A stretch of 64,000 nt of DNA, from positions 2,331,141 through 2,395,140 of the forward strand of contig OX638324.1 in assembly GCA_951812825.1 (NCBI GenBank), written 5' to 3'. The stretch's first letter is position 1. Every line of letters starts with the position of its first letter. The notes beneath the pieces were generated by a model. It worked only from the letters and a program-made list of their open reading frames with translations, did no database searches and was not told the origin of the DNA. Origin of the DNA: an uncultured Dehalococcoidia bacterium (GTDB lineage Bacteria; Chloroflexota; Dehalococcoidia; Lucifugimonadales; GCA-2712585). The position numbers and the translations under genes are program-made. This document shows positions 1,386 through 59,999 of this stretch, piece after piece.

Positions 1386-1404
1386 GGGGCGAAGTCCAGA
1401 GTAG

Positions 1405-3849: not shown

Positions 3850-3859
3850 GGGGTAAAGG

Positions 3860-9156: not shown

Positions 9157-10308
9157 TTAGTCGGTGGCGCGGGCTCCGTCTGTGGAGCGCATACCCTGGC
9201 GGTAACCGGCGATGATGCCGTCGGCGTTCCAGCGCTGGGTCTTGTCCCAGGCGCGCTGGATACTGGCGTTGGCACCCGTGAGGGCGGGCATTACGTAGCG
9301 GGCGAAGAGTTCCATGCTGTGGTACATCTTCTGGGTGGAGGCCCACTCGTTGATGGTGATGAGGAAACCGCCGGCGCCACCGGCTTCGTCGAAGAGAGCC
9401 TGAAGCTGGGAGGCGACGTCGTCCGGGTCGCCTACGATCCAGCGTCGGTTTCGGACGACTTCCTCAGCGGTAAGGTCGTCGAAGGGCTGGTCGGCATAGG
9501 TCTGGAACTGGCGCTGGCTACCGTTGCCGAAGTTGTAGCTGACTGAACTGAGGATACCGTCGCTAACGTCGGCCATGGCCTGCTCGCGGGTCTCGCCGAC
9601 GTGGACGTAGTGGACGAGGCGCCAATCGTCGCGGTTGACGGTCTTGCCGGCCTCGGCGGCGGCGGACTCAACAACGCCCCACTGCTGGGAGAGGGGGATG
9701 GAGCCGGCGATGGCGGAGTTGACCAGGGACCAGACGGGGAGGCCGTGGCGTCCGGCCTGGGTGAGGCTGTTGACGCTGCCGGAACTGGCCATGGCGACGG
9801 GTAGTCGGGGCTGCTGGTAGGACTTGACCATGAGCTCCATGTCTCTAAGCTGCCAGTAGTCGCCTTCGTAGGTGATGGGGCCGTCGGATTCGAGGAGCTT
9901 GATGATGATGTCGAGGGACTCGTTGGACATGGGACGGACCTGGTCGACGGAGAGTCCGAAGAGCATGAGGTCGGTGGCGAGGACGCCGGGGCCGACGCCC
10001 ATGACGAGGCGGCCGCGAGTGAGGTGGTCTAGGAAGGCCATGCGCTCGGCGACGTGGAAGGGGTGGTGGTAGGGGAGGTTGATGACGCCGGTGCCGAGGG
10101 TGATGCGCTTGGTCTTGGCGGCGGCCATGGCGATGAAGATGTCCGGGGCGGGGATGGTCTCCCATCCGGCGGAGTGGTGCTCGCCGATGAAGCATTCGTC
10201 GAAGCCGAGGTGGTCGACGAACTCGATGAAGTCGAGGTCGCGCTCGAAGGCGAGGGTGGGATTTTCGCTGGGGTGATGCAGAGGCATCATGAAGAAGCCG
10301 AATTTCAT
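9157..10308 (-). CDS. Luciferase-like (LLM class) flavin-dependent monooxygenase/oxidoreductase
   Basis: 383 aa. It has the N-terminus MKFGFFMMPLHHP..., FDECFIGEHHS and a TIM-barrel LLM pattern throughout. Confidence 0.85.
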   Translation of the reverse strand: MKFGFFMMPLHHPSENPTLAFERDLDFIEFVDHLGFDECFIGEHHSAGWETIPAPDIFIAMAAAKTKRITLGTGVINLPYHHPFHVAERMAFLDHLTRGRLVMGVGPGVLATDLMLFGLSVDQVRPMSNESLDIIIKLLESDGPITYEGDYWQLRDMELMVKSYQQPRLPVAMASSGSVNSLTQAGRHGLPVWSLVNSAIAGSIPLSQQWGVVESAAAEAGKTVNRDDWRLVHYVHVGETREQAMADVSDGILSSVSYNFGNGSQRQFQTYADQPFDDLTAEEVVRNRRWIVGDPDDVASQLQALFDEAGGAGGFLITINEWASTQKMYHSMELFARYVMPALTGANASIQRAWDKTQRWNADGIIAGYRQGMRSTDGARATD

Positions 10309-10450: not shown

Positions 10451-10552
10451 ATTATTCGTTTCAGCGTGATTCGTTATATTGGGTGGTGGAAACGAAGGGT
10501 GTTTTCCTTCGTAAACGGGGATTCGTAATTTGCTGTAGTGAAAACGAATGGC
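10451..10552. promoter_or_regulatory. Array of six TTCGT/ACGAA boxes in two about 50-bp units, a candidate operator region
   Basis: TTCGT occurs at 10455, 10470, 10508 and 10522. ACGAA occurs at 10492 and 10544. The pattern is direct-direct-inverted, twice. The array includes the 8-bp inverted repeat TTCGTTTC/GAAACGAA and lies 150-250 bp upstream of the LLM gene start (10308). Confidence 0.3.
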
Positions 10553-10720
10553 GCATTAACCAGGGGAAGAATTGCCTTTGGAAGGGGCTGGCCAGCGCGG
10601 AGGAGGAGTTCAGCGGAGCGTGCCGTGGAGTTGTGAAGTACGGTTATATGTTCCATTTGAGGAAGAATAGCAAGGAATGAGGTTTGTGGCAAGGGGGAAG
10701 ATGGCAGTAAGGGGGAGTGG

Positions 10721-10810
10721 GAGAGGGGGCGTTTCTCAGAGTGAAGGAGGGGAGACCCCCGGTCACCAGATTCTTCGTTGGGGGGCCTCCTCAGGAAAAG
10801 AGGGGGAGGG
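10721..10810 (+). repeat. Interspersed intergenic repeat, copy a (about 90 bp)
   Basis: GAGAGGGGGCGTTTCTCAGAGTGAAGGAGGGGAGACCCCCGGTCACCAGATTCTTCGT...GGGGCCTCCTCAGGAAAAGAGGGGGAGGG. It aligns by eye, with a few mismatches and short indels, to 11519-11610 in the same orientation. Confidence 0.7.
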
Positions 10811-11477: not shown

Positions 11478-11518
11478 AAGGGGGATGCAGGAATGGCATA
11501 GCGGAAGAGGGGGGGACG

Positions 11519-11610
11519 GAGAGGGGGTCGTTTCTCAGAGTGAAGGAGGGGAGACCCCCGGCCACCAGATTCTTCGTCGCGGGGCCTCTTCAGAAAAAAG
11601 AGGGGGAGGG
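11519..11610 (+). repeat. Interspersed intergenic repeat, copy b (about 90 bp)
   Basis: Direct copy of 10721-10810. The two copies bracket the DUF1761 gene. Confidence 0.7.
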
Positions 11611-11746
11611 TTTCTATGGGGATAGATTCTTCGGCATCGCTTCGCTGCGCACAGGGTGGCACGTGGGGGGCTAGAGGGGATGGTTGCTTGAAGCTTACTG
11701 TGGGGGTAGAATCCCAACGGTAACCGAAGTAGAGAGGCGGGGCGCA

Positions 11747-14700
11747 ATGTTCTTCAATCGCAGACTGTTTGGATTCACCGAGGGAGTAAGGCTGAGGCTT
11801 GTGCTGGCTCTCATCTTTGGTCTTCTGACGGCGGCCTCAGGGGTCAGCCGGCTGGCGCTTTCGGGTTACGCGATTGCGCTGGTGATTCGAGGCGCGCCTA
11901 CAGAAGAGATTATTCTGGCGGTTGTGGGAGTTGTGGCTTCGGCAGTGCTGCGGGGGGTTTTCCAGTACCTGAAGGAGATGACGGGGCACCTGGCGTCGGT
12001 GCGAGTGCAGGCGAAGATGAGGCGGGAGTTGTACCAGAGGGCGCTAATTCTGGGGCCCGGAGCGCTGGACCAGAAGCGGGCGGGGGACGTGCTGGTTTCG
12101 TTGGTGGAGGGCGTTGACCAGTTGGAAACCTACTACGGGGAGTATCTGCCTCAGGTGGCGGTGGCGGCGCTGACGCCCATCGGGATTTTCATATTCGTGG
12201 CGTTCCTGGACGTGCCCACGGCGGCGATTTATCTGGGCTTCGCCCTGTTTACACTGTTTGCCCCACTATTGTTCCACCACTGGAATGCAGTGAGCAGCGC
12301 GAGGCGTCGGGAAGTGTACGGAGACCTGAGCGCGGAGTTTCTAGACAGTGTTCAGGGGCTGGCGACGCTGAAGGCGTTCGGTCAGAGCCGGGCCCGGGGC
12401 CAGATGCTGGCGTCGAAGGCACGCGACGTGTACCAGAAGACGATGCGGATCCTGTTCATGAACGTGGGCACGACGGGCGCGACCTGGTTCGGCATCACGG
12501 CCGGAGCAGCGGTTGCGCTGGGGTTTGGCGCGGTGCGGGTGGCGGACGACTCGATGAGTCTGGCGACGCTGCTGGTGGTGTTGATGCTGGGGGTGGAGGT
12601 GTTTCGTCCTCTCCGGGAGCTGACGATGCTGTACCACAAGGGGATGCTGGGGATGTCGGCGGCAACGGCGGTCTTCGACCTGCTGGACGCGAAACCCCAG
12701 GTGGAGGACGTGGAGGGGAAGTCGGAAGCCGCTCCTTCGCTACAGCCGACGTTGAAGTTTGAAGACGTTACCTTCGCGTATCCCACGGGTCGTTCGGACG
12801 CGTTGAGCAATCTCAGCTTCGAGCTCAAGGCAGGGGAGACGCTGGGGGTAGTGGGACGAAGCGGCGCGGGGAAGAGTACGCTGGTGTGGCTGGCGCTGCG
12901 TTTCTTCGATCCATCCAAGGGCCGGATTTTGCTGGGCGGACAGGATATCCGAAGTATGCCGCTTGCGACGCTGAGAAAGCACGTGGCGGTGGTGGCGCAG
13001 GATACCTACCTGTTCCACGGAACTGTGGCGGACAACCTGAAGTTGGGGAACCCCGACGCAACCCAGGAAGAGATGCAGGAGGCGGCGAGGGCGGCCAACG
13101 CCGACCAGTTCATCACGTCGCTGCCCAACGGTTACGACACGGTAATCGGAGAGCGGGGGATTAGATTGTCGGGCGGACAGCGGCAGCGCATTGCCATCGC
13201 AAGGGCGCTGTTGAAGGACGCGCCGATTCTGCTTCTGGACGAAGCGCTTTCCAACGTGGACACGGAGAATGAGTCGATAATCCAACAGGCGTTGAACCGG
13301 CTGATGCAGGGCAGGACTACGCTGGTGATAGCGCACAGGCTTTCCAGCGTGATTGCCGCCGACCGGATTCTGGTTCTGGAGGAGGGACGGCTGGAGGAAC
13401 AGGGCGTCCACCGAGAGTTGATGCGCCAGCGGGGGGTCTACCGGAGCCTTATGGAGGCGCAGATGGAGACGGAGTCGGTGGAGCTTGCGCCGCTTCTAGC
13501 TACGGCCACTGCGGAGGATCCGGTGGCGGAAACGTACCACGGAGACTGGACGGGCCAGGGGTCCCAAGAGTATCTGCAGGAGCCGAGCATCATCAGCGCG
13601 ACGGCGGAGGAGATGAGCTGGTTCCGGGTCTTCGGGCGGCTTCTGAAGCTGGTAAGTCCATGGAAGACGGCGCTGACGTTCACCTTCATTCTGGGAATAC
13701 TGCGGGTGTTCGTGCTGATTGGGATAGGGGTTACGGGCGCGCTTATAGTGCGTCAGGTGGCGTTGGGCGGAGAGTTTGGCTTATTGTTGGTGGTGCTGGG
13801 CGTGATGGCCGTGTTGACGCCGATATTGCACTGGGCGGAGTCGTGGGTGTCCCACGACATGGCGTTCCGGCTGCTGGCCGAGATGCGGATAGCGATGTAC
13901 GAGAAGCTGGACCCGCTTTCGCCGGCGTACCTGGTGAGGCGGCGGTCTGGAGACATCGTGGGGCTGGTGACGAGCGATATCGAAACGGTTGAATACTTCT
14001 TCGCCCATACTATTGCCCCTGCCTTTGTTGCCGTGACGGTGCCTGGGGCGGTGCTGGTTACGCTGGCCATATTCCAGTGGCCGCTGGCGCTGATTCTGCT
14101 GCCGTTCCTGTTCCTGGTGGCGCTGACGCCGTTCTATGCGAACAAGACGCTGGACCGGGTAGCGTCGCAGTCTCGCCAGCAGTTGGGGGAGATCAATGCG
14201 CACATGGTGGACAGCGTTCAGGGGATGCGGGAGATTGTGGCGTTCGGGCACGAGGAGCAGCGGCTGGCGGAGGTGCAGGAGAACCAGAGGAAGTTTGCCG
14301 CCTACCGGATAACGTTTTTCAAACATCTGACGATTCAGAAGGTGGCGATTGAAGTGTGCATCGGGCTGGGGGGCATCGCCGTGCTGGGAGCGGGGGCGTA
14401 TTTCGCTACGCAGGGGAACCTGACGGGGACATTATTACCTCTGTTGAGCTTAATTGCGCTTTCGTCGTTCATTCCGGTGTCGGAGGTGGCGCAGGTAGGC
14501 AAGCAGTTGGCGGACACGCTGGGGAGTTCCCGTCGGGTATTCGCCGTGCATGACGAGCCGGTGCCGGTGCAGGACGGCAAGGGAGTCCACGCACCGCGGG
14601 AGGCGGCCCAGGGGTCGGCGGTGGCGTTCGAGGAGGTGGACTTCACCTACGGGCGGGGTCTGCCGCAGGCGTTGAAGCGGGTGGAATTTTCGATTGAGCC

Positions 14701-15361
14701 CGGACAGACGGTTGCCCTGGTGGGCCGGTCAGGCGCGGGGAAGACGACCTCGGCGCACCTGCTGCTGCGGTTCTGGGACCCGACGGAGGGTTCGATCAAC
14801 CTGGACCTGCATAATCTGAAGGAATTTGAGCTGGACGAATTGCGTCATTCAATTGCGTTGGTGTCGCAGGATACGTACCTGTTCAACACGACCATCCGGG
14901 AGAACCTGAAGGTGGCCAAGCCCGACGCTACGGACGAGGAGATTGTGGCGGCGGCGAAGCAGGCGAACGCGGATGAGTTTATCGCAGCGATGCCGGAGGG
15001 CTACGACACCAACGTGGGCGAGCGGGGAGTGCAGCTTTCGGGCGGACAGAGACAGCGGATAGCCATCGCGAGGGCGGTGCTCAAGGGCGCGCCGGTGCTG
15101 GTGCTGGACGAGGCAACGTCGCACCTGGACGCGGTGAACGAACGGCTGGTGCGGCAGGCCCTTTCGCGGCTGATGTCGGACCGGACGACGCTGGTGATTG
15201 CCCACCGGCTTTCGACGGTTCGGGACGCGGACAAGATTCTGGTGCTGGAAGAGGGAGAGCTGGTGGAGCAGGGGACGCACGAAGAGCTGCTGGCGAAGGG
15301 CGGGTTGTATTCGCATCTGGTTTCGGCGCAGGTTCTGCCCAGCGAGGGTGCTAGCGACTGA
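11747..15361 (+). CDS. Fused two-half ABC exporter (TMD-NBD-TMD-NBD), CydDC-like
   Basis: There are two Walker A sites (GRSGAGKST and GRSGAGKTT), two LSGGQRQR signatures and two Walker B sites (LLLDEA and LVLDEA). Each is preceded by a six-helix TMD. The preferred start is ATG 11747. The CydD/CydC-type assignment is tentative. Confidence 0.85.
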   Translation: MFFNRRLFGFTEGVRLRLVLALIFGLLTAASGVSRLALSGYAIALVIRGAPTEEIILAVVGVVASAVLRGVFQYLKEMTGHLASVRVQAKMRRELYQRALILGPGALDQKRAGDVLVSLVEGVDQLETYYGEYLPQVAVAALTPIGIFIFVAFLDVPTAAIYLGFALFTLFAPLLFHHWNAVSSARRREVYGDLSAEFLDSVQGLATLKAFGQSRARGQMLASKARDVYQKTMRILFMNVGTTGATWFGITAGAAVALGFGAVRVADDSMSLATLLVVLMLGVEVFRPLRELTMLYHKGMLGMSAATAVFDLLDAKPQVEDVEGKSEAAPSLQPTLKFEDVTFAYPTGRSDALSNLSFELKAGETLGVVGRSGAGKSTLVWLALRFFDPSKGRILLGGQDIRSMPLATLRKHVAVVAQDTYLFHGTVADNLKLGNPDATQEEMQEAARAANADQFITSLPNGYDTVIGERGIRLSGGQRQRIAIARALLKDAPILLLDEALSNVDTENESIIQQALNRLMQGRTTLVIAHRLSSVIAADRILVLEEGRLEEQGVHRELMRQRGVYRSLMEAQMETESVELAPLLATATAEDPVAETYHGDWTGQGSQEYLQEPSIISATAEEMSWFRVFGRLLKLVSPWKTALTFTFILGILRVFVLIGIGVTGALIVRQVALGGEFGLLLVVLGVMAVLTPILHWAESWVSHDMAFRLLAEMRIAMYEKLDPLSPAYLVRRRSGDIVGLVTSDIETVEYFFAHTIAPAFVAVTVPGAVLVTLAIFQWPLALILLPFLFLVALTPFYANKTLDRVASQSRQQLGEINAHMVDSVQGMREIVAFGHEEQRLAEVQENQRKFAAYRITFFKHLTIQKVAIEVCIGLGGIAVLGAGAYFATQGNLTGTLLPLLSLIALSSFIPVSEVAQVGKQLADTLGSSRRVFAVHDEPVPVQDGKGVHAPREAAQGSAVAFEEVDFTYGRGLPQALKRVEFSIEPGQTVALVGRSGAGKTTSAHLLLRFWDPTEGSINLDLHNLKEFELDELRHSIALVSQDTYLFNTTIRENLKVAKPDATDEEIVAAAKQANADEFIAAMPEGYDTNVGERGVQLSGGQRQRIAIARAVLKGAPVLVLDEATSHLDAVNERLVRQALSRLMSDRTTLVIAHRLSTVRDADKILVLEEGELVEQGTHEELLAKGGLYSHLVSAQVLPSEGASD

Positions 15362-18988: not shown

Positions 18989-19137
18989 GGATTGGCCTGC
19001 TTTTCGGATAAATTGGTTGTGTCATCATACGTTGGGTGGATATGGCAGTCAAAGGGCGGTTTCGATGGCCTCTGGGGCTGTGATAGGATAATTGTGGTTG
19101 GATTTTAGACATTTTGAGCCGTCGAGAGGTGATGGTT

Positions 19138-20364
19138 ATGAGTTTGCCGAAAGGGGCTTTGGATGGGATCCGAGTGTTGGACCTGGGGCGATATCAGGCG
19201 GGGCCGCGGGCGAGCCTGGTTATGGCACGGTTGGGCGCGGAGGTAATCAAGGTGGAGGGGCCGGGGGGCGATGAGAGCCGCGACCACGGGCCTTTCGTGC
19301 GGGGTCAGAGCGCCTACTGGGTGCAGTACAACAGCGGCAAGAAGAGCCTGGGTCTGAATCTTCGCACGGAGGAAGGGAAGGAAGTGCTACGGGGGTTGGT
19401 GAAGGTTTCGGACATACTGGTGCAGAATTTTCGGCCTGGGACCATCGCCAAGATGGGCTTTTCCTACGAGAACCTTCGGAAGCTTAACAAGGGCATCATC
19501 ATGGTCAACGTTTCGGCTTACGGGCAGTACGGGCCGTACAGCAGCCGGATCGGGTTCGACCCCATCGGGCAGGCCATAAGCGGGATGATGATGTTGACGG
19601 GGTTTGAGGGAATGCCGCCGATAACTACGGCGAACCCGATTATTGATCGGATCACTTCGCTGCACGCCTGCATCGGCGCGCTGGCGGCGTTGCACGAGCG
19701 GGAGACTTCGGGCGAGGGACAGTGCGTGGACGTGTGCCTGGCGGATACGGGTTACACGATGACGGAGATCCAGTGCAGCGCGTTTCTGGGGTCTGGGGAG
19801 GATACTCCGAGGAAGGGGAACGGAAAGGGGACGAGCAACGTTTACCAGGCATCCGACGGGTGGGTGCTGCTATCGGCGCAGAGCAACAACATTTGGCCGC
19901 GATTCTGTGGGGTGGTTGGCAAGCCCGAATGGGCGGAGGACCCGCGATTCGCCACCCGGTCGTCGCGGGATGCCAATGCGGACGCCATAACGGAGGAGCT
20001 GGAGGGGTGGTTTCGGAGCCGGACCGTTGCAGAGGCGGTGGGGGTTATCGCGGACGTGGGTATCCCGTGCCAGGCGGTGAACCGGATACCGGAGGCGGCG
20101 ACGGACCCGCACCTGCACGAGCGGGAGATACTGAAGGAGGTGCCGGACCCTGTGGCGGGATCGATTCACGTTTCGGGGAAGAACATCAAACTGAGTCGAA
20201 GCGGGGCGGTTGTGGGGTCAGCGCCGACGGCGGGACAGCATACGCGGGAGATATTGACGTCTTTGTTGGGGTATTCGGACGATAAGATCGACGGGTTGGA
20301 GTCGACGGGGGCGTTGTACACGGGGTTGGAGGCGCGGGAGGCGGTGACGCCGCAGGATGAGTAG
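19138..20364 (+). CDS. Family III (CaiB/BaiF) CoA-transferase
   Basis: Motifs GIRVLDLGRYQAGPRASLVMARLGAEVIKVEGPGGD and GFDPIGQAISGMMMLTG. Alternative starts are 19114 (TTG) and 19132 (ATG). Confidence 0.85.
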   Translation: MSLPKGALDGIRVLDLGRYQAGPRASLVMARLGAEVIKVEGPGGDESRDHGPFVRGQSAYWVQYNSGKKSLGLNLRTEEGKEVLRGLVKVSDILVQNFRPGTIAKMGFSYENLRKLNKGIIMVNVSAYGQYGPYSSRIGFDPIGQAISGMMMLTGFEGMPPITTANPIIDRITSLHACIGALAALHERETSGEGQCVDVCLADTGYTMTEIQCSAFLGSGEDTPRKGNGKGTSNVYQASDGWVLLSAQSNNIWPRFCGVVGKPEWAEDPRFATRSSRDANADAITEELEGWFRSRTVAEAVGVIADVGIPCQAVNRIPEAATDPHLHEREILKEVPDPVAGSIHVSGKNIKLSRSGAVVGSAPTAGQHTREILTSLLGYSDDKIDGLESTGALYTGLEAREAVTPQDE

Positions 20365-28104: not shown

Positions 28105-28222
28105 GGCAGGAAGGTCTTGCATTGCGGGCTATTCTGGTGGGAGGGTAAGTCCGGCGGGTGGGGGTTTGGCGTAGGGGATAGTGGGGGTTGGGTGAGTTTG
28201 AGTTGGGGTGGGAAGGAGTTTT

Positions 28223-29812
28223 GTGAGTAGGATATTGTTGTTTTTTGCGATGCTGGTGGTTGGGGTTGCTGCGGCTGTCACGCTGGGTTGTTCGGGGGGT
28301 GATGGGACGTCGGGAGTGCCGACGGCGACTGTGATGCCTGAGGCTGCGGAGGGCCGGCCTGGGAGTGCAACGGTCGCGACTCCGTCGGCAACGTCGCGGG
28401 TGACGGCTGGGGCGACGCGTGAAAATACTACGTCGGAGATGACTCCAGCGTTGGGGGCGGGCTACGATTCCAGTGAGAATATGTTCCGTCTGTTTTCTGG
28501 GCGGGACCACGAATCTGTCGACACACTTGAGGCTATGGAGCTTGCTGTTGCCAACAGGGACAGGTCGATGGCGCCGGTGCTTATTGAGATGCTTCGATTC
28601 TTCGAGGACTATGTACATGCGATCGAGGCCCGGAAGGCGCTCACGGCGATAACGGGCCGGGTGGTTGAGGGGAATGAGGGGTCGTGGAGCGGGTGGATGG
28701 AGTGGCTGGTCAATAACGCCGACGAGCACCATCCGCCCGCCGGATATCTGGACTGGAAGATCGGGTTGATGAGTCTGATTGACCCCAGGTTCGAGGAGTT
28801 TCTGGCTCCGGCGGCTGAGGGGTCTCGCGTAAATGTGTTTGAGATTGCGTGGGGAGGCGTCGGGCCCGACGGGATTCCAGACCTTCAGGACTCGCCCGTA
28901 GTTTCGGCGGAAGAGCAGGACTATCTCCAGCCGGGGGACCGGGTCTTTGGAGTGTCGATCAACGGAGAGCATCGGGCATACCCGCATCGGATCATGAATG
29001 CTCACGAGATGGCCAACGACGTGCTGGGGGGCGAGCCCATTGCCCTGGCCTATTGAACGCTTTGCGGCACCGGAATCGTGTATTCCGCAAAGATAAACGG
29101 GGAGCCAACCACTTTCGGAACGTCGGGGTTGCTGTATCGCAGCAACAAGGTGATGTACGATCGTCTGACCAATAGTCTGTGGAACCAGTTTACGGGGGAG
29201 CCTATCATCGGACCGCTGTGGAACTCCGGGATGCAGCTGGATTTTTTCCCTGTGCTTGTGACGACGTGGGAGGAGTGGGTGGAGCTTCATCCGGATACGA
29301 CGGTGCTGGACAGGGAAACGGGGCATTATCCAGTGACGTACTATCTGCCGGAGGAGCACCGGGAGGCGATCTACTATGATTACTTTAACTCGCCGGGAAC
29401 GATGTTCGCGGTGCCGGACCGGGACGGCCGGCTTGCAACGAAGGACGTGGTGCTGGGGGTGCAGGTGAATGACAGCTACAAGGCGTACCCGGTTGCGGCG
29501 CTGCAGGAGGAGAGGATTGTCAATGACGCGGTGGGAGGCGAAGGGGTGGTGGTGTTGGGGTCGGCGGCGAGCCAGGGGGCGAGGGCCTATTTGCGAGGGG
29601 ACAGAGTCTTCGAGGCAGCGGGGGAGGATGGGGGAGTGGGGATTCCATCGGTGATTGCGGATGCTGATGGAGGCAGGTGGCAGGTGACGGAGGAGTTTCT
29701 GGTCAATGCGGCCGACTGGTCGGAGAAGCTGGCCCGGATTCCCACGCACACTTCGTACTGGTTTGGGTGGTTCCAGTTCCACGGGGATACGGAGCTTTAT
29801 ACGGGGCGGTGA
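28223..29812 (+). CDS. DUF3179-family lipoprotein read through an in-frame TGA (candidate selenocysteine at 29054-29056)
   Basis: The GTG start at 28223 follows GGAAGGAG. There is a signal peptide with ...TLGC. The two track ORFs (28208-29056 and 29078-29812) share one frame with only the TGA between them. Read-through gives ...HRAYPHRIMNAHEMANDVLGGEPIALAY-U-TLCGTGIVY...GTSGLLYRSNKVMYD, matching the DUF3179 core, where a Cys is conserved at this position. Confidence 0.65.
29060..29092 (+). promoter_or_regulatory. SECIS-like hairpin immediately downstream of the in-frame UGA
   Basis: The lower stem pairs CTTTG (29060-29064) with CAAAG (29088-29092). The upper stem pairs CGGAAT (29071-29076) with ATTCCG (29082-29087). 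The apical loop is CGUGU, which contains GU. The loop lies about 20 nt from the UGA. Confidence 0.5.
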
Positions 29813-32817: not shown

Positions 32818-33071
32818 ATGGCGAAGTTCTTGTTCCAGGCAGACTATAGCCCTGCTGGAGTGGCAGGGCTACGCAACGAGGGCGGTACAGGGCGGAAGAG
32901 GATGTTTGCGGACATGGGCGGGACAATCGAGTTCTTCTATATGCCTTTGGCAGAGAGGACCTCTACATGATTGTGGACCTGCCTGACGATGCTGCGGCCG
33001 TAGCTGCTTGAATGGCGGCGACGGCATCCGAAGTGTTGGCTGACGGCGTATACTGCATAGCACTGGTTTGA
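32818..33071 (+). pseudogene. Remnant of a GYD-domain protein gene
   Basis: MAKFLFQADYSPAGVAGLRNEGGTGRKRMFADMGGTIEFFY... matches the GYD/COG4274 N-terminus. A frameshift is then needed to read ...DLYMIVDLPDDAAAVAA, followed by an in-frame TGA and a truncated tail. It is too short to appear in the ORF track. Confidence 0.45.
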
Positions 33072-34777
33072 TGATTCCTGTGAACCGCATATATTTCCCT
33101 ACTATGCTTGGGTTGGCCTTGGTGTTGGCGATTGTGGGCTGTCAAAGGCCGGATGATGAATCCGACGCCTCGACGCCTGAGTCCGGGGCTACATTCATTG
33201 TGACGGCAGTTCCGGCATCGACGACGGCGGCTGCTGAAGCGGCTCCAGCCTCTCCGACGGCGGGGCCTACGGCGACGCAGGCAACCACATTGCCGGCTCC
33301 GTCGACGCCAGCGCCCACTGCTGCGCCTGCCGCGCCCTTCCCTTCGCCTACGAGACGGCCCATACCACGGGAGACGCCCACGCCCACGCCGGACAGGACT
33401 CGTTCGCCCACGCCTACGCCTATTGCTGTTCCGGCAGTCTACGAGTCCAACAAGAATATGTTCCTGCTACTGTCGGAGTTCATTCATCCTGAAGAGTCAT
33501 CGTTGGCGGCGTTGGAGAGGGCCAGGGCTGAGAGGGATGTCTCCCAGGTGCATGTCATATTGGAGGCGCTGCCGTTCTTCACCCGCGACCTTGCGATGGC
33601 CGGCATAGAGGCGGTGGGCCACCTTACGGGGCAGGATTTCGGTTTCGACCTGAGGAGGTGGAGAGAGTGGCTTGGGCCCAGGCACGAGGAGTATGCGCCA
33701 CCTTCCGACTATGCCCGCTGGAAGGCCAATATGCTTTCTCTGATTGACCCGGAACTGGGCGATCTGATGAAGCAGGCAATAGATGGAGGATCGAGGGCTA
33801 ATCTTACCGAGATTGTATGGGGCGGGGTACGAACGGACGGCATTCCGCCGCTGGAGTTTCCGCCGCACGCGAGGCCGGAGGGAGCGCTATATCTGCTGCC
33901 TGACGACAGGGTGTTTGGTGTTTCCATCAACGGTGAGCACCGGGCGTACCCGCTGAGGGTGATGAATGCCCACGAACTGGCGAACGACGTGCTGGGCGGG
34001 GAGCCAATTTCGTTAGTGTATTGAACACTCTGCGGCACCGGAATCGTGTATTCCGGCTTCGTAAACGGAGAGGAGACAACCTTCGGGACTTCCGGGATGC
34101 TGTACCGGAGCAACAAGGTTATGTATGACCGGGCAACCCGCTCTTTGTGGCATCAGTTCACGGGGGAGCCGATTATCGGCCCCCTGGCCAACTCCGGCAT
34201 CAAGCAACCCTTTTTCCCGTCCGTAGTCACCACGTGGGAGGAGTGGCTGGCGGAGCATCCCGACACGACGGTGTTGACGAATGAAACTGGCTATTACAGG
34301 GCGGAGTTCTACGTTCCTGAAGACAATCCACGGGCCATCTACTACGAGTATTTTACTACGGATGAGGTTATGTTCCCGGTGTGGCTTCGGGACCCGAGCA
34401 TAGAGCCGAAGAGGGTGGTTGTGGGACTCTTGACGAGCGAGAGAAAGAAGGCGTACGTGGTCGATGACTTGCGGGCGGCGAGGGTGATTAACGACACGGT
34501 GGGGGACGTGGAGGTAGTGATTGCGGCGTCGGGCGAGTCGCGCTCGGCCCGCGCCTACGAAAGGCAGGGGGAGACGTTTACGGCGGCGGGCGGCGGGGAC
34601 GCGGAGGCGACGCCCCGGTTCCTGGTGGACTCCAACGGAGCAAGATGGGAGGTGACCGAGGAGGCGCTGGTCCTTGAGAGCGACCCCTCAAAGACGCTGC
34701 CGCGGCTTGCTACGCTGACCTCCTTCTGGTTTGGGTGGTACCAGTATCACCCGGACACGGAGATTTACCGGCCCTAG
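33071..34777 (+). CDS. DUF3179-family lipoprotein paralog read through an in-frame TGA (candidate selenocysteine at 34022-34024)
   Basis: It has a signal peptide with the lipobox ...AIVGC and a Pro/Thr/Ala linker. The track ORFs 33068-34024 and 34046-34777 share one frame. Read-through gives ...HRAYPLRVMNAHELANDVLGGEPISLVY-U-TLCGTGIVY...GTSGMLYRSNKVMYD. Confidence 0.65.
34038..34056 (+). promoter_or_regulatory. SECIS-like hairpin downstream of the second in-frame UGA
   Basis: CCGGAAT-CGTGT-ATTCCGG is a 7-bp stem with the same CGUGU loop. It starts 13 nt after the UGA. Confidence 0.5.
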
Positions 34778-46755: not shown

Positions 46756-47154
46756 TTGATTGTTCTGATGGTAGCAATGGGGGGTCTATTTGGGGCGGTC
46801 TTGCGTTATTTGGCGGCAACGTGGGTACAGGGTTCCCTCGGCAGCAACGGGTTCCCTTACGGGACGCTTGCAGTGAACATAGTTGGGTGTTTAGTGATTG
46901 GCGTTATTGCGGGATACGCAGAGGTCAGGCGGCCTTTGAGCGCCGAGGCCCAGGCGTTTCTAGTTGTGGGCGTGCTGGGCGGCTTTACCACGTTCTCTGC
47001 CTTTGGAATCGACACCATTAACCTTCTGAGGGGAGGCGACTATCTGGCCGGGGCAGCGAACGTTGCTCTGCAGGTGACTTTCGGTCTGCTGGCGGTGGTC
47101 GTTGGCTTGAGACTGGCGCAGTGGGGCTTCGAAAAGCTGGCGGCGGGCCAATAG
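46756..47154 (+). CDS. crcB: Fluoride ion channel CrcB/FluC
   Basis: 132 aa with GGLFGAVLRY, GTLAVNIVGCLVIG and GGFTTFSAFG. AAGGAGG precedes the TTG start. Confidence 0.9.
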   Translation: MIVLMVAMGGLFGAVLRYLAATWVQGSLGSNGFPYGTLAVNIVGCLVIGVIAGYAEVRRPLSAEAQAFLVVGVLGGFTTFSAFGIDTINLLRGGDYLAGAANVALQVTFGLLAVVVGLRLAQWGFEKLAAGQ

Positions 47155-47197
47155 AGAAGTCCGTCAACGGTATTCTTCACGAACCAGGCCGCTACGG

Positions 47198-48329
47198 ATG
47201 ACGTCGCTGAGTTACGGAAGGTTGGCTCGTACGCAGAAGAAGGGCGCGGGATCAGGGGCTGCCCTGGACCTGAACGGTGACGTCATTCCAACCTGGGAGG
47301 AATTTGGTCCCCGAGGGCGTATTCTCCAGGCTATTGGGGTCAACGGGAAATTCGAAGTTGATCAAGACGGCCTTATTGAGATCGCCAACATTGAGCAGAT
47401 GGCTGCTATGGCACTTGATCTCAGCGGTAACGGGCGTCCAAAGAGTGGAGGAGTCTAGAAGCCATATTATGGGGCCTATCCTGTTGGAGAGGGAGGGGTG
47501 GTATGCAAAATCTACTACGGATATGAACTTGTACGCCCGCTGGATTTCGCAGCCCCAGACAGTTATTCGACGGGCGTAGTCCATGACGAATGGGGAACCG
47601 GCCAGGGTTGGTATCCCGCAACCCTGGGGTCGAATCAATCTCCTACTGTATTCGGAGGCAACGGGCGACGTGTCTGGCACTCTGTAAGTGGGTGAACTGG
47701 TCGGGTGTAATTCGGAGGCTCAGATCACGTCGAATCTTTCCTCTGGAAACGTTACGGGAGTACCCAGGGAAGGGGATCCGGTTGGAGTCAACGCAATCAA
47801 TTCCTGCCCTGCCAAAGTCACGGCCAGTTACGCCACAGGCGACGGAGACATTTGGGACTTCGGGACCGAGGTCCCACACCCGGCGCTGAAGGTTGATCTG
47901 GACGGAGACGGCGTTGCAACGTGGCAGGAAGTCGGCAACCAAGGCAGGGATACTTACTCCGCTTCTGCCGTCCCCGCAACAGGTCCGGCTGCTCCCACTC
48001 CCGTTCCCACTTTGGACGACGGGACCGAAATGGACGCCGACTCCGACGGTCTCATCGAGGTCTCAAGTCTGGGGCAGTTGAATACGGTACGATACGATCT
48101 CGACGGCGACGGAATTCTCGACGACGGCGGGACAGCTATCAATGCTTCAGTCTTCCCATCTCCCCTGCTCATCTTCGAGCGAAGCCTTCCCACGTACCAC
48201 TCTTGTCGAACTCCGAAAAGCAGCCGGGAGAGTTTGCACCGATGGGCTGCGTCTCAATTCCAACCGGCACAGCAACCGGGACTGGCTCTCGCCCACCCAT
48301 CGGTTCACCCCAGCAATTCTGAACTGTAA
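47198..48329 (+). pseudogene. Degraded fragment of a large repetitive surface protein gene (DxDGLIEI...LDGDG / GLUG-like repeat units)
   Basis: Pieces are spread over frames with an in-frame TAG (47456-47458) and at least one frameshift. The pieces are DQDGLIEIANIEQMAAMALDLSGNG, GYELVRPLDF...GQGWYP...FGGNG, ELVGCNSEAQITSN...SYATGDG..WDFGTEVPHPALKVDLDGDGVATWQEVGNQ and DSDGLIEVSSLGQLNTVRYDLDGDG. Confidence 0.5.
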
Positions 48330-48512
48330 ACGCCAATTGGATAGGTTGACTACTACAGCGTCGAGAGTGTACCATGTTCTGCTTAATAAGCGATACTTTA
48401 TATCATTAAAGTGTAAAGGAGGATAGCAATGCGCGCTGACAGAGGAACCAGGATGTGAAGGCCAGGAATCCATTTGCGAATTACATTTGAAAATCAATGC
48501 ACGAGGTGAAAC

Positions 48513-48707
48513 ATGGAGTTCTATAACGTGAAGACCAGGCAAAAGGTGGAAATACCAGACGGCGACCTCAGGAAGAATACCCTGGTGCAGAAGAATGGCA
48601 GACGCACCTATCTTGTTACTGGGGAAGAAAACGGCACCAAACTGGTCAGGTTTGTTAGCAAGCAACAGTACGATGCCTTGCAAGTGCCTGAGATTGAGGG
48701 CTCCTGA
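48513..48707 (+). CDS. Small protein resembling a Cys-less DUF5679 (degenerate zinc-ribbon) domain
   Basis: 64 aa with GAGGTG upstream. EFYNVKTRQKVEIP...LVQKNGRRTYLVTGEENGTKLVRFVS parallels the DUF5679 pattern AYCVKCR.K.E...VT.KNGR....G.CP.CGTK.FRI, but all four Cys are replaced. Confidence 0.5.
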   Translation: MEFYNVKTRQKVEIPDGDLRKNTLVQKNGRRTYLVTGEENGTKLVRFVSKQQYDALQVPEIEGS

Positions 48708-48716
48708 GGGGGCATT

Positions 48717-49229
48717 ATGTGGTGGTTCAAACGAGCGGTACTTCGTAGGACCTTCGCTGAAGCCCAGGCGATGCATCCCTGGTTTCTGAACTACGAGCAG
48801 CTGGAACCAGGGGTCAGGGAGCTGGTGCGGACACTCAACCAGACCGACCTGGTAGAGACTCTCTCCTCCTGTGAAGGTCACCCGGAGTTGGCAGACTGGT
48901 GGGATACCACTGGTGGAACGGCTTACGTCCTGTGCCTGGTGACCAGTCCCAGCCAGTGGAACCAGGTGCTGAATCGACTACGTCAACTGGCCCAGGACTG
49001 GACTGAAGTCCAATTGATAGTACGAGATGACCGGGAGCGGTCGGAGCAGTGGCTGGGGTTTCAAGCCAGCCATGACGAACCGCAAACAGTCCGCAACGCC
49101 CTGGACCGAGCCATTAGCCAGGCTAACGAGTTGATTAGAGAGTACTTGGACCATGATGTTGTTGCTATAACCTCAGCCCGACGTGGGAGAGAGGACTATA
49201 CCCAGCAAACTGGTCCTCACGTTTTCTAG
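48717..49229 (+). CDS. Hypothetical 170-aa protein (LVETLSSCEGHPE motif), middle gene of a tight three-gene cassette
   Basis: It starts 9 nt after the upstream stop and is preceded by GAGGGGG. I recognise no family. Confidence 0.5.
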   Translation: MWWFKRAVLRRTFAEAQAMHPWFLNYEQLEPGVRELVRTLNQTDLVETLSSCEGHPELADWWDTTGGTAYVLCLVTSPSQWNQVLNRLRQLAQDWTEVQLIVRDDRERSEQWLGFQASHDEPQTVRNALDRAISQANELIREYLDHDVVAITSARRGREDYTQQTGPHVF

Positions 49230-49280
49230 AGGATGAATGCGAGGCCAAGGAAAGGCCCAACAGATCGACGGAGGTGTCCC

Positions 49281-49466
49281 ATGGAAGGACTAACTGCCTA
49301 CTGCTTTGCGCTGCGCAGGATGTGCGAGATCCTGGAACCCAGTTTAGTAACCCTGAAGAATGGTCGCAAGGCGGTACGGGGCAAGGCCAAAGATGCTCCC
49401 CAGTACACCATCTTCCGAATTGTGAGTGAATCTGAGGCGAAGCAAGTGGAGTCCAGGTTCAGTTAA
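49281..49466 (+). CDS. Second DUF5679-like small protein, a paralog of 48513-48707
   Basis: MEGLTAYCFALRRMCEILEPSLVTLKNGRKAVRGKAKDAPQYTIFRIVS... GGAGG lies 7 nt upstream of ATG 49281. The ORF track extends to 49233. It shares Y..R..EI, LV..KNGR and (L/I)(V/F)R(F/I)VS with the first copy. Confidence 0.5.
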   Translation: MEGLTAYCFALRRMCEILEPSLVTLKNGRKAVRGKAKDAPQYTIFRIVSESEAKQVESRFS

Positions 49467-49764
49467 CGGAACAGGATTCAGGATTGCGGCTAATCCTGGC
49501 GTATGATCAGGTATTGCATCGCAGAGAACACATCTGCTCCACCCGGATGGTCAGCTGCGCCGGTTGTAGGTCGGCGAGGGACTGAGGCCGGAAAAGCGGC
49601 TACTACCATCTATTGAGAGCGAGCAATCGCCTTGTAGGCACCGAGATTTCTGACGGCCCGGTGGCCTGCGTCACTGAGTAAGATTCCGATGTCAGCGTAC
49701 CCGCAGCGCCTAAAGACGTTGAAGTCATCAGGAAAGAGTTAGCGTCTTTCCTGGCGTTGACGAG

Positions 49765-49956
49765 GTGAACTGGACCGCGGCGGAGGGTGTGACCTGTTAC
49801 CAAGTGTACAGGGCTGGGGAGATGCTGACCGTGTTAAGCGCCCCCCAGGCCGTCAGTTCCTACACGTACCTGGTCCGCTCCTTAGACCTCGCATTCGATA
49901 CCTACTATCAGATCCGCGCGCTCGGCAAGGCTGGCTGCTCTCCGTTATCGCAGTAG
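49765..49956 (+). pseudogene. Isolated C-terminal FN3-like fragment, probably the tail of the degraded surface protein gene
   Basis: VNWTAAEGVTCYQVYRAGE...SSYTY...YYQIRALGKAGCSPLSQ-stop resembles a fibronectin-III-type terminal domain. There is no plausible N-terminal continuation or RBS. Confidence 0.35.
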
Positions 49957-50502
49957 GAAATATCACCGGAAAGTTTACAAAGATGGCCGACGTGTGAGCG
50001 CCGGCTTAACCGACGACTCGAGCCGGGCCCTCGTCCACCTGAAGCGGCGCTGGGGTTAGCCTGCATTGCAAAGGCAACCCTTGGCTTGAAGGCGCTAGAT
50101 CTTATTCAATATGGTGGGCCGGAGGTGACTGTAGGTAGTACCGTCTTTGAGATGCAGATGAAACTCTAAGCCCACAATCACCTCGGTCTCATCAGATAGT
50201 TCGAACGCTATCGGGCGGTCAAGAACATATTGGAGAACTTTAACACGTTTCAGTCCATCGGTTAACCTCATGCATGTTTGCAGTGCGTAACTGAAGCTTC
50301 AACATGTCGGAAATTTTGTCCCTGGTCTTAGTTGAGGCATTTGGCCCTGCGAGGACGCCCAATGCCATCCCCATGTCGTCCTACGTTGACCACCTTACTT
50401 GGCTAACAAGTGGTCAACCAAAGAGCATGTTCCTTCTACGTCAGAATCACGTAGTGCGGACTGGGAACATTAAGGACGGAACTGGTTCGCTGGACAAGAG
50501 CC

Positions 50503-58866: not shown

Positions 58867-59999
58867 TGTACTCGTTCAGTACATGTGAGACAGATTAGAA
58901 GGGACCAAGGATGGGTGGCACTGGAGAAGATACTGCAAAGGGGTTAGTCCGTCCAGGGAGTGATGAGGTCGGAAGGTGTCGTAGATTTGCTCCCATTTGA
59001 GCAGAGCCCGGTTGAGGGTAGAGACATCCAGTTCGCCATCATAGAGCTCGTAGAACTCTTCGGTATGAGTACGCTGGGCCCGCTCCACATGGCCGTTGAG
59101 CTTGGGAGAGCGCGGCGGCAGTATGAAGAGTTTGATATCGAACTTCTGGCAAGCGGTCTCGAAGTCCGCCATGAACTCGGAGCCTCCATCCACCTGAACT
59201 GCCTTGATGGGGAAGGGAAACCGTCGCCGCATGGACTCAAGGAACCGGGCCGCCAGTGTGGACGTGGCCCTTGTGTGCACCTCCAGCACGTCCCACCTGG
59301 AGACCATGTCCCGAGCGGTGAAGTGTTTGAGCACCATGCCAGGCAGAGGGCGCACGTCCAAAGTGTCCACCTGCACGATGTCCCCCGGTTCTATGACCTG
59401 ATACTCCCTCGGCTTCCGTACCCCATAGGGACGCGGACGCGTGCGCCTACGGGCCGATATACCGTCACGGGGCGGCTCTTTCAACACCCCACGGGCCTTC
59501 AAGCGAGTCAGAATGCGGCCCACCATGGATGTGGACACCTCCCAGCCCTTATCCCTGAGCAACGGCGCCAGCTTGTCCTTCCCCCATCTAGGATACTCTT
59601 CCCTCAGCTTTAGCACTGCCCTAGCTAACTCAACAGTCCACGTAGGCCGCCTCACCCTCTTGGGTCGTCGACTCTTGTCTACTAAGCCCGCCGGCCCTTC
59701 CTCCCTGAGGGCTTTGTCCCACCGGTACAGGCTACAGCGTGACAGTCCCAGTGCCTCTGCTGCTTCCGTTGCCGTCACTCCCCGTTGCCTCAATCTATTC
59801 CAGCCACTCACCCACCTCATCCGATCTTGCGCTTTCAACGTCAGCTGTGCTGGTGTCCTCTTCGAAAGCTGATAGAATGATTTGGGTAGTCCTACTACCC
59901 TCATGAAAGGGACCTCCTTCGGTCTATCTCACCCAAAGGATGGTCCCTTTCTATTTCCCTTACAACTCCATCCGTCTCATATCTATCTGAACGAGATCA
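58867..59999 (-). mobile_element. IS481-like insertion sequence, copy 2 (1133 bp, inverted relative to copy 1)
   Basis: It is the reverse complement of 5191-6323, with a single visible nucleotide difference (59769 versus 5421 region, Thr/Ser codon). The flanks are ...AAGGGGA and GAACCTG..., with no convincing target duplication. Confidence 0.85.
58876..59904 (-). CDS. IS481-family DDE transposase
   Basis: 342 aa, identical to 5286-6314 except residue 45 (T versus S). Confidence 0.9.
   Translation of the reverse strand: MRVVGLPKSFYQLSKRTPAQLTLKAQDRMRWVSGWNRLRQRGVTATEAAEALGLSRCSLYRWDKALREEGPAGLVDKSRRPKRVRRPTWTVELARAVLKLREEYPRWGKDKLAPLLRDKGWEVSTSMVGRILTRLKARGVLKEPPRDGISARRRTRPRPYGVRKPREYQVIEPGDIVQVDTLDVRPLPGMVLKHFTARDMVSRWDVLEVHTRATSTLAARFLESMRRRFPFPIKAVQVDGGSEFMADFETACQKFDIKLFILPPRSPKLNGHVERAQRTHTEEFYELYDGELDVSTLNRALLKWEQIYDTFRPHHSLDGLTPLQYLLQCHPSLVPSNLSHMY

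Follow-up and report, generated by a model that had tools for sequence, protein, structure and literature searches.

The closest described relatives of the locus analysed here are the DUF3179 selenoproteins. DUF3179 (UxxC/T) was predicted to be a prokaryotic selenoprotein family by Zhang & Gladyshev in 2007, a prediction attributed to the metagenome of the Olavius algarvensis worm symbionts, where most selenoproteins were deltaproteobacterial (PMC1976440), and the family is present in the selenoprotein catalogues of 2022 and 2026 (PMC9312934, PMC13188914). The catalogue entries are computational predictions, and none of the three papers that mention the family gives 75Se or mass-spectrometry proof of Sec in DUF3179. 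Thioredoxin-fold UxxC selenoproteins, both DsbA-like and of the thiol:disulfide interchange type, are listed in the same catalogues (PMC9312934, PMC13188914). On the RNA side, the bacterial SECIS (bSECIS) model describes a loop of 3-9 nt, an upper stem of 4-16 bp, a G in the first two loop positions, a distance of 16-37 nt from the UGA and an MFE of <= -7.5 kcal/mol (PMC13188914).

The window, by which we mean the whole 64-kb stretch of DNA under analysis, contains two DUF3179 genes that are each interrupted by an in-frame TGA (Table 1). We estimate a probability of about 0.9 that both specify exported DUF3179 lipoproteins of full length whose UGA is decoded as Sec, with U-x-x-C replacing the C-x-x-C of most homologs. 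Like the catalogued DUF3179 selenoproteins, the two genes combine the same Pfam domain with a UGA in the first position of UxxC, Cys homologs and a stem-loop directly downstream; unlike them, they are two old paralogs in a Dehalococcoidia/SAR202-type genome.

In paralog 2, ORFs 33068-34024 and 34046-34777 occupy one common frame with the TGA at 34022-34024 as the sole stop between them. Translation bore out the first-pass annotation on this point, and the sequence is exactly as given there. The read-through translation is ...GGEPISLVY-[TGA]-TLCGTGIVYSGFVNGEETTFGTSGMLYRSNKVMYD..., and with Sec written at the stop the junction peptide becomes ...ISLVY-U-TLCGTGIVYSGFVNGEETTFGTSGMLYR. In paralog 1 the corresponding context is ...GGEPIALAY-[TGA]-TLCGTGIVYS, and a global alignment places both TGAs in one column, in agreement with the earlier claim that they stand at an identical position. 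Y-[TGA]-T-L-C-G is therefore common to both paralogs, and U-T-L-C corresponds to the UxxC/T motif at a conserved CxxC site: about 110 full-length homologs, among the 120 listed, carry C[TV]LC there, with the TGA in place of the first Cys. Conservation among homologs reaches 90% or more at both C196 and C199.

Table 1. Coordinates of predicted features of the two DUF3179 genes in the window
Feature	Position	Strand	Remarks
Paralog 2, full CDS of DUF3179 selenoprotein precursor (predicted)	33071..34777	+	568 codons + stop TAG, via TGA 34022-34024
Signal peptide with lipobox, paralog 2	33071..33142	+	…LAIVG-C24; translation read by eye
Pro/Thr/Ala-rich low-complexity linker, paralog 2	33143..33433	+	From translation; pLDDT <50 in matching segment of homolog P0002
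Helical N-terminal module, ~130 residues, paralog 2	33434..33835	+	Outside Pfam model; helices 84-208 in P0002 model
DUF3179 (PF11376) domain, paralog 2, TGA inside	33836..34759	+	Residues 256-563, profile positions 2-292 of 292, E 3.9e-77
Predicted Sec codon, in-frame TGA, paralog 2	34022..34024	+	Residue 318; position one of U-T-L-C motif
SECIS-like hairpin, paralog 2	34038..34056	+	Stem CCGGAAU/AUUCCGG (7 bp), loop CGUGU at 34045-34049
Paralog 1, full CDS of second DUF3179 selenoprotein (predicted)	28208..29812	+	534 codons + stop
Predicted Sec codon, in-frame TGA, paralog 1	29054..29056	+	Residue 283; sole internal stop
SECIS-like hairpin, paralog 1	29071..29087	+	Stem CGGAAU/AUUCCG (6 bp), loop CGUGU

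The architecture proposed for both proteins (putative signal peptide or lipobox, Pro/Thr-rich linker, helical module, DUF3179) holds when the translation and the Pfam match are set beside an AlphaFold model for a Cys homolog. As in paralog 2, the PF11376 match of paralog 1 crosses the TGA (residues 221-528, E 6.2e-79), and the two paralogs score 260 and 266 bits against a gathering cut-off of 27, with both matches covering profile positions 2-292 of 292. By inspection, the paralog 2 N-terminus ...LVLAIVG-C24 fits the lipobox [LVI][ASTVI][GAS]C, that of paralog 1 (...AVTLG-C28) is a less canonical lipobox, and the ortholog P0001 has an N-terminal start like that of paralog 2, where the homolog consensus is ..A.ACGS. 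The paralog 2 product is a predicted lipoprotein that would be exported to the outward-facing side of the membrane. The linker has the maximum omega within the gene, 0.41 in the paralog comparison.

Cys-containing DUF3179 proteins (~540 residues, 45-53% identical) share with the window proteins their length, lipobox-like N-terminus, linker, helical module, DUF3179 domain and invariant residues. They differ in having Cys for Sec within C-T-L-C-G-A-G-I-A-Y-H, that is GAGIAYH where the TGA forms have G[TS]GIVYS, and in a coding DNA that, unlike that of the TGA forms, cannot form the hairpin. The AlphaFold model of one such homolog (P0002, 51% identical, pLDDT 86) consists of a signal helix followed by a disordered segment (19-78), the helices, and a beta-rich domain (216-527) that holds the motif. 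A thioredoxin-fold oxidoreductase was considered and rejected, as there is no thioredoxin-type Pfam match and the motif lies in the beta-rich domain of the P0002 model. The thioredoxin-fold UxxC selenoproteins, many of which are exported, resemble the window proteins in their UxxC redox-type motif and differ in fold, since the DUF3179 Cys-homolog model joins a helical module to a beta-rich domain and has no significant PDB neighbour. A Foldseek search of this model returned nothing with E <0.4 from the PDB and solely an uncharacterised Indivirus protein from BFVD; NCBIfam gave no match, and sequence and profile searches gave no PDB relatives. When the ORFs around the TGA gene were clustered across loci, no neighbouring family occurred in more than 14 loci, and the commonest were unrelated housekeeping or catabolic genes.

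The experimental archetype of bacterial SECIS elements is that of E. coli fdhF, and such elements are usually described as weakly conserved in sequence. As in these elements, the hairpin of the window genes lies within the coding sequence just past the UGA. Its core, GGAAU-CGUGU-AUUCC, belongs to a stem of 6-7 bp that begins 14-15 nt past the UGA, and its 5-nt CGUGU loop, with G-U at positions 2-3, is located 20 nt past the UGA, such that the bSECIS geometry is matched in loop length, in stem length, in spacing and in having G as the second loop nucleotide. The 15-nt core GGAATCGTGTATTCC has exactly two occurrences in the window, one per TGA site. Unlike typical bacterial SECIS elements, the hairpin is very short, has no bulge and is only marginally stable, and its 15-nt core is near-invariant across more than 100 species. 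Measured against the published energy cut-off of -7.5 kcal/mol, the paralog 2 hairpin alone reaches -7.7 kcal/mol, and the conserved 6-bp form of paralog 1 is weaker (-5.1 kcal/mol) and has a rival extended fold at -12.1 kcal/mol. An optional lower stem in paralog 2, pairing 34032-34035 with 34059-34062, brings its energy to -11.4 kcal/mol. In energy terms, shuffled sequence folded as well as the 60-80 nt after each TGA (z -0.7 to +0.3), and Rfam returned tRNA-Ala only in a gathering-threshold scan of the whole window and only noise in permissive scans of the two TGA regions. The case for the hairpin is built on conservation and covariation and not on energy.

This conservation becomes apparent when the motif TGA-ACN-YTN-TGY-GGN-WCN-GGN-ATH-GTN-TA is scanned over 596 Gb of genomes. 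It occurs at no fewer than 120 loci, almost all in MAGs labelled Dehalococcoidia, Chloroflexota or SAR202, which is far beyond chance, since about 0.4 matches would be expected at uniform base composition. Across 117 distinct sequences, the pairs from 19-33 to 23-29 are present without exception (100%). At 18-34, 82 sequences have C-G, 25 have U-A and 2 have G-C, and at 21-31, 107 have A-U, 9 have G-U and 1 has C-G. The changes at pairs 18-34 and 21-31 are compensatory, and overall 98.9% of paired positions can pair, versus 17-67% with the partner strand slid. The same constraint appears in codon choice, with a codon entropy of 0-0.5 bit at positions +5 to +10, while most other conserved codons have 0.8-2 bits: all 119 of 119 sequences use TAT for Tyr+9, and Gly+6 is GGA in 108/119 although GGC is favoured at most other Gly codons. 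In contrast, Cys forms that share G-S-G-I-V-Y vary at their wobble bases and lack the hairpin; this contrast, drawn from 4 loci of a metagenome collection, is qualitative and not statistical. In one related contig (L002), TGG (Trp) is found at the TGA site with the hairpin sequence retained; either an error in long-read assembly or a true substitution could account for this.

No Sec machinery appeared in the DNA that we searched. ARAGORN found no tRNA-Sec in the window or in the surveyed loci, Pfam scans of 40 window ORFs gave no match to SelA, SelB or SelD, and the surveyed loci contained no selA, selB or selD. Support for the machinery at the lineage level comes from the literature, where Dehalococcoidia bacterium UBA1141, whose locus L044 carries the TGA motif, is described as a Sec-pathway species that has 49 selenoprotein genes, and where SelA/SelB are described as enriched in bins of sponge symbionts from several phyla. 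Since the machinery is not seen directly, and since our data establish translation of the UGA and an RNA element and not the identity of the inserted residue, one may ask whether the UGA is instead read, under stimulation by the hairpin, by a near-cognate tRNA for Trp or Cys or by a dedicated suppressor, the more so as Trp may be tolerated at this site if the TGG of L002 is genuine. We consider this quite unlikely: bacterial Sec genes are defined by just such a UGA at a CxxC Cys followed, ~20 nt downstream, by a hairpin with a G-U loop, published catalogues already list DUF3179 among the selenoprotein families, and both the presence of the exact motif in UBA1141 and the enrichment of SelA/SelB in symbiont bins argue for Sec.

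A very unlikely arrangement, in our estimate, is that of a split gene, in which an exported N-terminal half ends at the TGA, a separate C-terminal half starts at GTG 34046 and the hairpin serves translational coupling or regulation. The GTG is only 7 codons past the TGA, and re-initiation there could be modulated by the hairpin. Within those seven codons, which precede the first possible restart, T-L-C-G is retained while the wobble bases vary, and this shows that the stretch between the TGA and GTG 34046 is translated; the same holds for T-L-C-G-T-G-I as a whole, which is kept as residues with variable synonymous sites. In addition, the second Cys of the motif falls inside the gap between TGA and GTG, a lone C-terminal half would be without a signal peptide while its partner is exported, and the site is crossed both by one Pfam domain and, in the P0002 model, by a compact beta domain.

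Selection on the two sides of the TGA points in the same direction as the Sec reading. Among the species representatives surveyed, which do not include the window's own genome, the nearest are L109 (CBDBPI010000002.1) and L111 (~85-86% nucleotide identity), and relative to their orthologs omega is 0.08-0.12 downstream of the TGA (dS 0.42-0.53) and 0.20-0.23 upstream; between the two paralogs it is 0.23 upstream and 0.29 downstream. Purifying selection therefore acts on both sides in ortholog and paralog comparisons alike, as the first-pass annotation had proposed for one translated protein, and with these values and frames that are intact in nearly all 106 checkable loci, there is no sign of neutral drift or frame decay downstream. 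These 106 are the pattern matches, out of 122, that lie wholly within their locus, from more than 100 species-level genomes, and in nearly all of them the open frame extends for ~250-330 codons upstream and 242-255 codons downstream of the TGA.

That first annotation had also preferred a retained recoded TGA over independent nonsense mutations in the two paralogs. Retention and recoding are supported, with the qualification that the two TGAs do not count as independent events. In the paralog 2 orthologs of L109, L111 and L001 both the frame and the TGA are preserved, the paralog 1 ortholog in L109 keeps its TGA as well, and each paralog thus has its own TGA-bearing orthologs, with both present in the related genome L109. 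In an NJ tree (without support values), the two paralogs fall in separate deep Sec clades.

The view that both genes are pseudogenes, with TGAs that arose as nonsense mutations, independently or by gene conversion, and with the N-terminal half made at most, can be given next to no credence. Gene callers do end there, as in the public protein P0001, an ortholog recorded as a 312-residue fragment that stops at the TGA (...ISLVY), and the window is without Sec machinery. Against this stand the stronger purifying selection downstream than upstream relative to orthologs, the ~250 intact codons downstream in nearly all loci, and a stop that is invariably TGA, at a Cys position, followed by the same hairpin. 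Genome-wide reassignment of TGA to an ordinary sense codon (Trp, code 4; Gly, code 25), for which the Trp codon at the site in L002 might be cited, is dismissed because 11 of the 35 well-supported window genes, including SerRS and a CoA-transferase whose next gene lies 10 nt beyond, end in TGA as their normal terminator and thus indicate the standard code, because in-frame internal TGA is limited to the two DUF3179 genes among credible window genes, and because homologs read Cys at the site and not Trp or Gly. Elsewhere within the window there is no convincing in-frame TGA join that would mark another selenoprotein gene.

We are thus left with a TGA that is almost certainly a Sec codon read with the hairpin, and hence with an intact gene. 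The mRNA folds 14-15 nt past the UGA into the 6-7 bp hairpin with its GGAAU/AUUCC core and CGUGU loop. In the mechanism that we propose, this hairpin would work as a bacterial SECIS: while the ribosome pauses at the UGA, it would recruit SelB·GTP·Sec-tRNA(Sec), and Sec would be inserted and termination avoided. The precursor would be exported and then lipid-anchored via the lipobox Cys, and its beta-rich domain would thereby present a selenol/thiol pair on the external side of the cytoplasmic membrane. Its chemistry would most likely be selenenylsulfide/disulfide redox exchange or the binding of a soft metal or metalloid, a suggestion taken from the motif, as the DUF3179 family has no characterised member.

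It is possible, if on balance doubtful, that Sec is ancestral in the Dehalococcoidia/SAR202 branch of DUF3179 and that the large Cys clade arose via Sec-to-Cys replacement. The near-invariant 15-nt hairpin GGAAUCGUGUAUUCC would then be a minimal, lineage-specific SECIS that has stayed unchanged through an old duplication and more than 100 speciations, and the protein might be a lipoprotein of a new type, active outside the cytoplasm in selenol/thiol redox or in metal(loid) handling, whose fold has no solved relative.

Since the DUF3179 selenoprotein family was already catalogued, these results amount to a sound annotation fix and not to new biology or a new mechanism. The fix has practical consequences, because gene callers split these genes and a conserved pair of exported selenoproteins is consequently absent from Dehalococcoidia, Chloroflexota and SAR202 proteomes. 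A SECIS core that is nearly fixed in sequence and register, with clean compensatory changes across its many loci, provides a simple and specific pattern by which such genes can be found and corrected. The hairpin is also a compact candidate element for SelB target recognition in the Dehalococcoidia lineage. Many of the MAG names of the TGA loci point to marine or sponge samples.

The two DUF3179 genes of the window, paralogs 1 and 2, each carry a single internal in-frame TGA (coordinates in the table). In paralog 2, two ORFs share one forward-strand frame with this TGA as the sole intervening stop, and the read-through product is ...GGEPISLVY-[TGA]-TLCGTGIVYSGFVNGEETTFGTSGMLYRSNKVMYD...; the context in paralog 1 is ...GGEPIALAY-[TGA]-TLCGTGIVYS. 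Translated with Cys at the stop, each gene gives a single full-length match to Pfam DUF3179 (PF11376) running over the TGA, at residues 256–563 in paralog 2 (E 3.9e-77) and 221–528 in paralog 1 (E 6.2e-79). The first-pass annotation had described the split frame of paralog 2 and placed both TGAs at an identical position; the ORF listing and translation bear out the former exactly as written, and both TGAs share one column when the paralogs are aligned globally.

Coordinates of features in the window and in the loci compared with it
Feature	Sequence	Position	Strand
DUF3179 paralog 1	window	28208-29812	+
In-frame TGA, paralog 1	window	29054-29056	+
DUF3179 paralog 2	window	33071-34777	+
ORFs of paralog 2	window	33068-34024; 34046-34777	+
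In-frame TGA, paralog 2	window	34022-34024	+
First possible restart (GTG), paralog 2	window	34046	+
IS481-type insertion sequence, copy 1	window	5191-6323	+
IS481-type insertion sequence, copy 2 (inverted)	window	58867-59999	-
103-bp direct repeat, two copies	window	10710-10810; 11508-11610	
Large ABC transporter gene	window	11684-15361	
Family III CoA-transferase domains (four, two in one gene), MaoC-type dehydratase and luciferase-like monooxygenase genes	window	258-5128; 9157-10308; 19114-20364	
Region of short overlapping ORFs	window	47150-50500	
One-base deletion in G run	L001 (ena:ERZ24894577:ctg459401l)	~5990-6010	
Region of the relative with TGG (Trp) at the TGA position	L002 (ena:ERZ25766727:ctg350188_2x_l)	10460-10735	
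DUF3179 paralog with neither Cys nor Sec	L097	2987-3262	
Two TGA-form DUF3179 genes	L013	1861-1889; 3779-3807	

Separate dN/dS (omega) estimates for the two parts of the gene, proposed in the first-pass annotation, show purifying selection on both sides: between the paralogs, whose synonymous sites are saturated, omega is 0.23 upstream of the TGA (194 codons) and 0.29 downstream (250 codons). Orthologs at ∼85% nucleotide identity, from L109 (contig CBDBPI010000002.1, with both paralogs arranged as in the window) and L111 (paralog 2), gave unsaturated estimates (dS 0.42–0.53) of 0.20–0.23 upstream versus 0.08–0.12 downstream, and the part after the TGA is therefore under stronger constraint than the part before it. 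A motif scan with the pattern TGAACNYTNTGYGGNWCNGGNATHGTNTA over one genome per GTDB species matched at least 120 loci, with few exceptions labelled Dehalococcoidia, Chloroflexota or SAR202, where ∼0.4 matches are expected by chance (our own arithmetic, uniform base composition). Of 122 matches listed, 106 lie wholly within their locus, and in nearly all of these the frame is open for ∼250–330 codons upstream and 242–255 downstream; neither downstream neutrality nor frame decay, two of the signs named beforehand as speaking against one translated protein, was seen.

If the two ORFs were instead translated as two polypeptides, the second could start at the GTG restart, seven codons past the TGA. 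Within those seven codons, which include the second Cys of the motif, the T-L-C-G residues are kept while wobble bases vary freely, so that the stretch before the restart is itself under protein-coding selection and the two-polypeptide reading is untenable. A pseudogene or a sequencing error is likewise untenable given selection on both sides of the TGA and a frame open across species. TGA as a general sense codon is ruled out, since 11 of 35 well-supported window genes terminate with it, and among credible window genes an internal in-frame TGA is confined to the DUF3179 pair. Four independent lines (paralog omega, ortholog omega, cross-species frame and the coding gap) make translation of the UGA nearly certain.

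Relatives indicate which residue the TGA replaces. A homologue search found 1176 proteins, and ∼110 of the 120 listed, with lengths of ∼540 residues, have C-[TV]-L-C where the TGA stands, most commonly as CTLCGAGIAYH; among 35 aligned sequences, each of the two motif Cys shows at least 90% conservation. The closest public protein among the matches listed, P0001 (79% identical), is a fragment that stops after 312 residues at ...ISLVY, and its contig L001, syntenic with the window, has a TGA there followed by the same downstream sequence. Thus the TGA stands for the first Cys of CxxC, giving UxxC. L001 also has a one-base deletion 60 nt past the TGA and several fragmented adjacent genes, which suggests noise in a long-read assembly, and for that reason its downstream dN/dS is unusable. 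In L002, a close relative with 74% identity over a 92-residue probe around the site, TGG replaces the TGA and the hairpin core CCGGAATCGTGTATTCCG is kept; the change from Sec to Trp is either genuine or an artefact of long-read assembly. Locus L097 holds, in addition to a TGA form, a paralog with the motif AY-D-V-Q-T-G, so the family also includes members without the redox pair.

Downstream of the TGA lies an RNA hairpin in which, with numbering from the U of UGA, positions 18–23 pair with 29–34 (CGGAAU/AUUCCG) around the loop C24-G25-U26-G27-U28, with a seventh pair, C17-G35, in paralog 2. The two paralogs are base-identical, wobble included, between the TGC (Cys) codon and the end of the hairpin, both inclusive, and differ in the flanks. 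Across 117 distinct TGA-form sequences five of the pairs are formed in 100%, and in raw counts, uncorrected for kinship, pair 18–34 is C-G in 82, U-A in 25 and G-C in 2, U18 always occurring with A34, and pair 21–31 is A-U in 107, G-U in 9 and C-G in 1; paired cells make up 98.9% overall, versus 17–67% when the 3′ partners are slid by 1–3 nt. Synonymous sites are frozen exactly over the hairpin codons: codon entropy is 0–0.5 bit at codons +5 to +10 versus mostly 0.8–2 bits at conserved codons elsewhere, all 119 Tyr+9 codons are TAT whereas TAC is favoured at the more distant Tyr codons −25 and +27, and Gly+6 is GGA in 108/119 whereas GGC is favoured at most other Gly codons. Since the search pattern is free at all these wobble positions, ascertainment does not account for the frozen bases. 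In Cys forms with the same G-S-G-I-V-Y residues (L123–L126), and in the Cys paralogs of L069, L079 and L080, the wobble bases vary and the hairpin cannot form.

Bacterial SECIS elements, the hairpins directing selenocysteine (Sec) insertion, are recognized by criteria that include a G at loop position 1 or 2, a spacing of 16–37 nt and at most −7.5 kcal/mol (PMC13188914); loop length, stem length, loop G and spacing (20 nt) here all agree with them. The paralog 2 hairpin, at −7.7 kcal/mol (−11.4 with the lower stem), passes the energy cut-off; in paralog 1 the conserved 6-bp hairpin by itself, at −5.1 kcal/mol, misses it, and a competing extended fold reaches −12.1. Energy z-scores of 60–80-nt folds after the TGA were unremarkable and no Rfam model matched the hairpin, the case for which rests on conservation and covariation.

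Selection on both sides, Cys at the site in relatives and a hairpin of the TGA forms together uphold the first-pass interpretation of a retained recoded codon, and we put the probability that the inserted residue is selenocysteine at about 0.9. No selA, selB, selD or tRNA-Sec was found within the 64-kb window or the fetched loci. The lineage as a whole offers good support for the machinery: in the BSepDB paper, Dehalococcoidia bacterium UBA1141 is listed as having 49 selenoprotein genes and belongs to the species said to have the Sec pathway, and this genome (L044) bears the same TGA motif; according to Slaby et al., SelA and SelB COGs are found together in most bins of sponge symbionts from several phyla. 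The tRNA-Ser(GGA) gene present in 14 loci (L012, L030, L034, L036, L039, L053, L055, L057, L058, L070, L081, L093, L098 and L108) is an ordinary one and not a tRNA-Sec; at L012, the sole locus with positions compared, it lies ∼1 kb past the TGA, just beyond the end of the DUF3179 gene.

DUF3179, with the motif UxxC/T, is a listed predicted prokaryotic selenoprotein family (PMC9312934, PMC13188914), and both papers credit Zhang & Gladyshev 2007, on Olavius algarvensis symbionts; the window genes are thus further members of a known family. Our analysis may extend these catalogues incrementally in three respects: a Sec form widespread across Dehalococcoidia, Chloroflexota and SAR202 genomes, two or more old lineages of Sec paralogs, and a SECIS core unusually invariant in sequence. 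A midpoint-rooted NJ tree lacking support values places paralog 1 in a 31–41-member Sec clade adjoining a 101-member Cys clade, and paralog 2 in a separate 26-member Sec clade. Two TGA-form genes, in tandem or far apart, also occur in L013, OZ240229.1 (L004, L061) and OZ253584.1 (L018, L038), so retention of two Sec paralogs is common in the lineage. The result soundly corrects the annotation and provides a tidy SECIS example, but does not amount to a system of a new kind.

The Cys homologue P0002, as modelled by AlphaFold (pLDDT 86, pTM 0.80), has a signal helix and a disordered linker, followed by a helical module (84–208) and a beta-rich domain (216–527) holding the motif. One comparison showed a weak repeat within the sequence, V-x-G-(5 residues)-AY-(8 residues)-ND-x-(L/V)-G (E 0.016), which hints at a pair of related beta units. 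No PDB structure resembled the model (E above 0.4), PDB sequence and profile searches and NCBIfam returned nothing, and gene neighbours showed no conservation across loci. From the lipobox and the UxxC motif we infer a putative exported, membrane-anchored protein with selenol/thiol redox or soft-metal-binding activity.

Elsewhere in the window, the IS481-type copies, 99.8% identical over 1133 bp and each encoding a transposase of 342 residues that contains HTH and rve domains, flank ∼52.5 kb holding both DUF3179 genes, and could form a composite element or mediate inversion. The ∼3.3-kb region that separates crcB from an M24 peptidase gene is occupied only by short ORFs overlapping one another in several frames, has slightly lower G+C (0.52–0.58) and no Rfam match, and may be degraded or foreign DNA. 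The direct repeats, 90% identical and ∼800 bp apart, adjoin the start of the ABC transporter gene. Together with the CoA-transferase domains, the window holds genes for a MaoC-type dehydratase and a luciferase-like monooxygenase, a content typical of SAR202-type Chloroflexota and in line with how the closest loci are classified.
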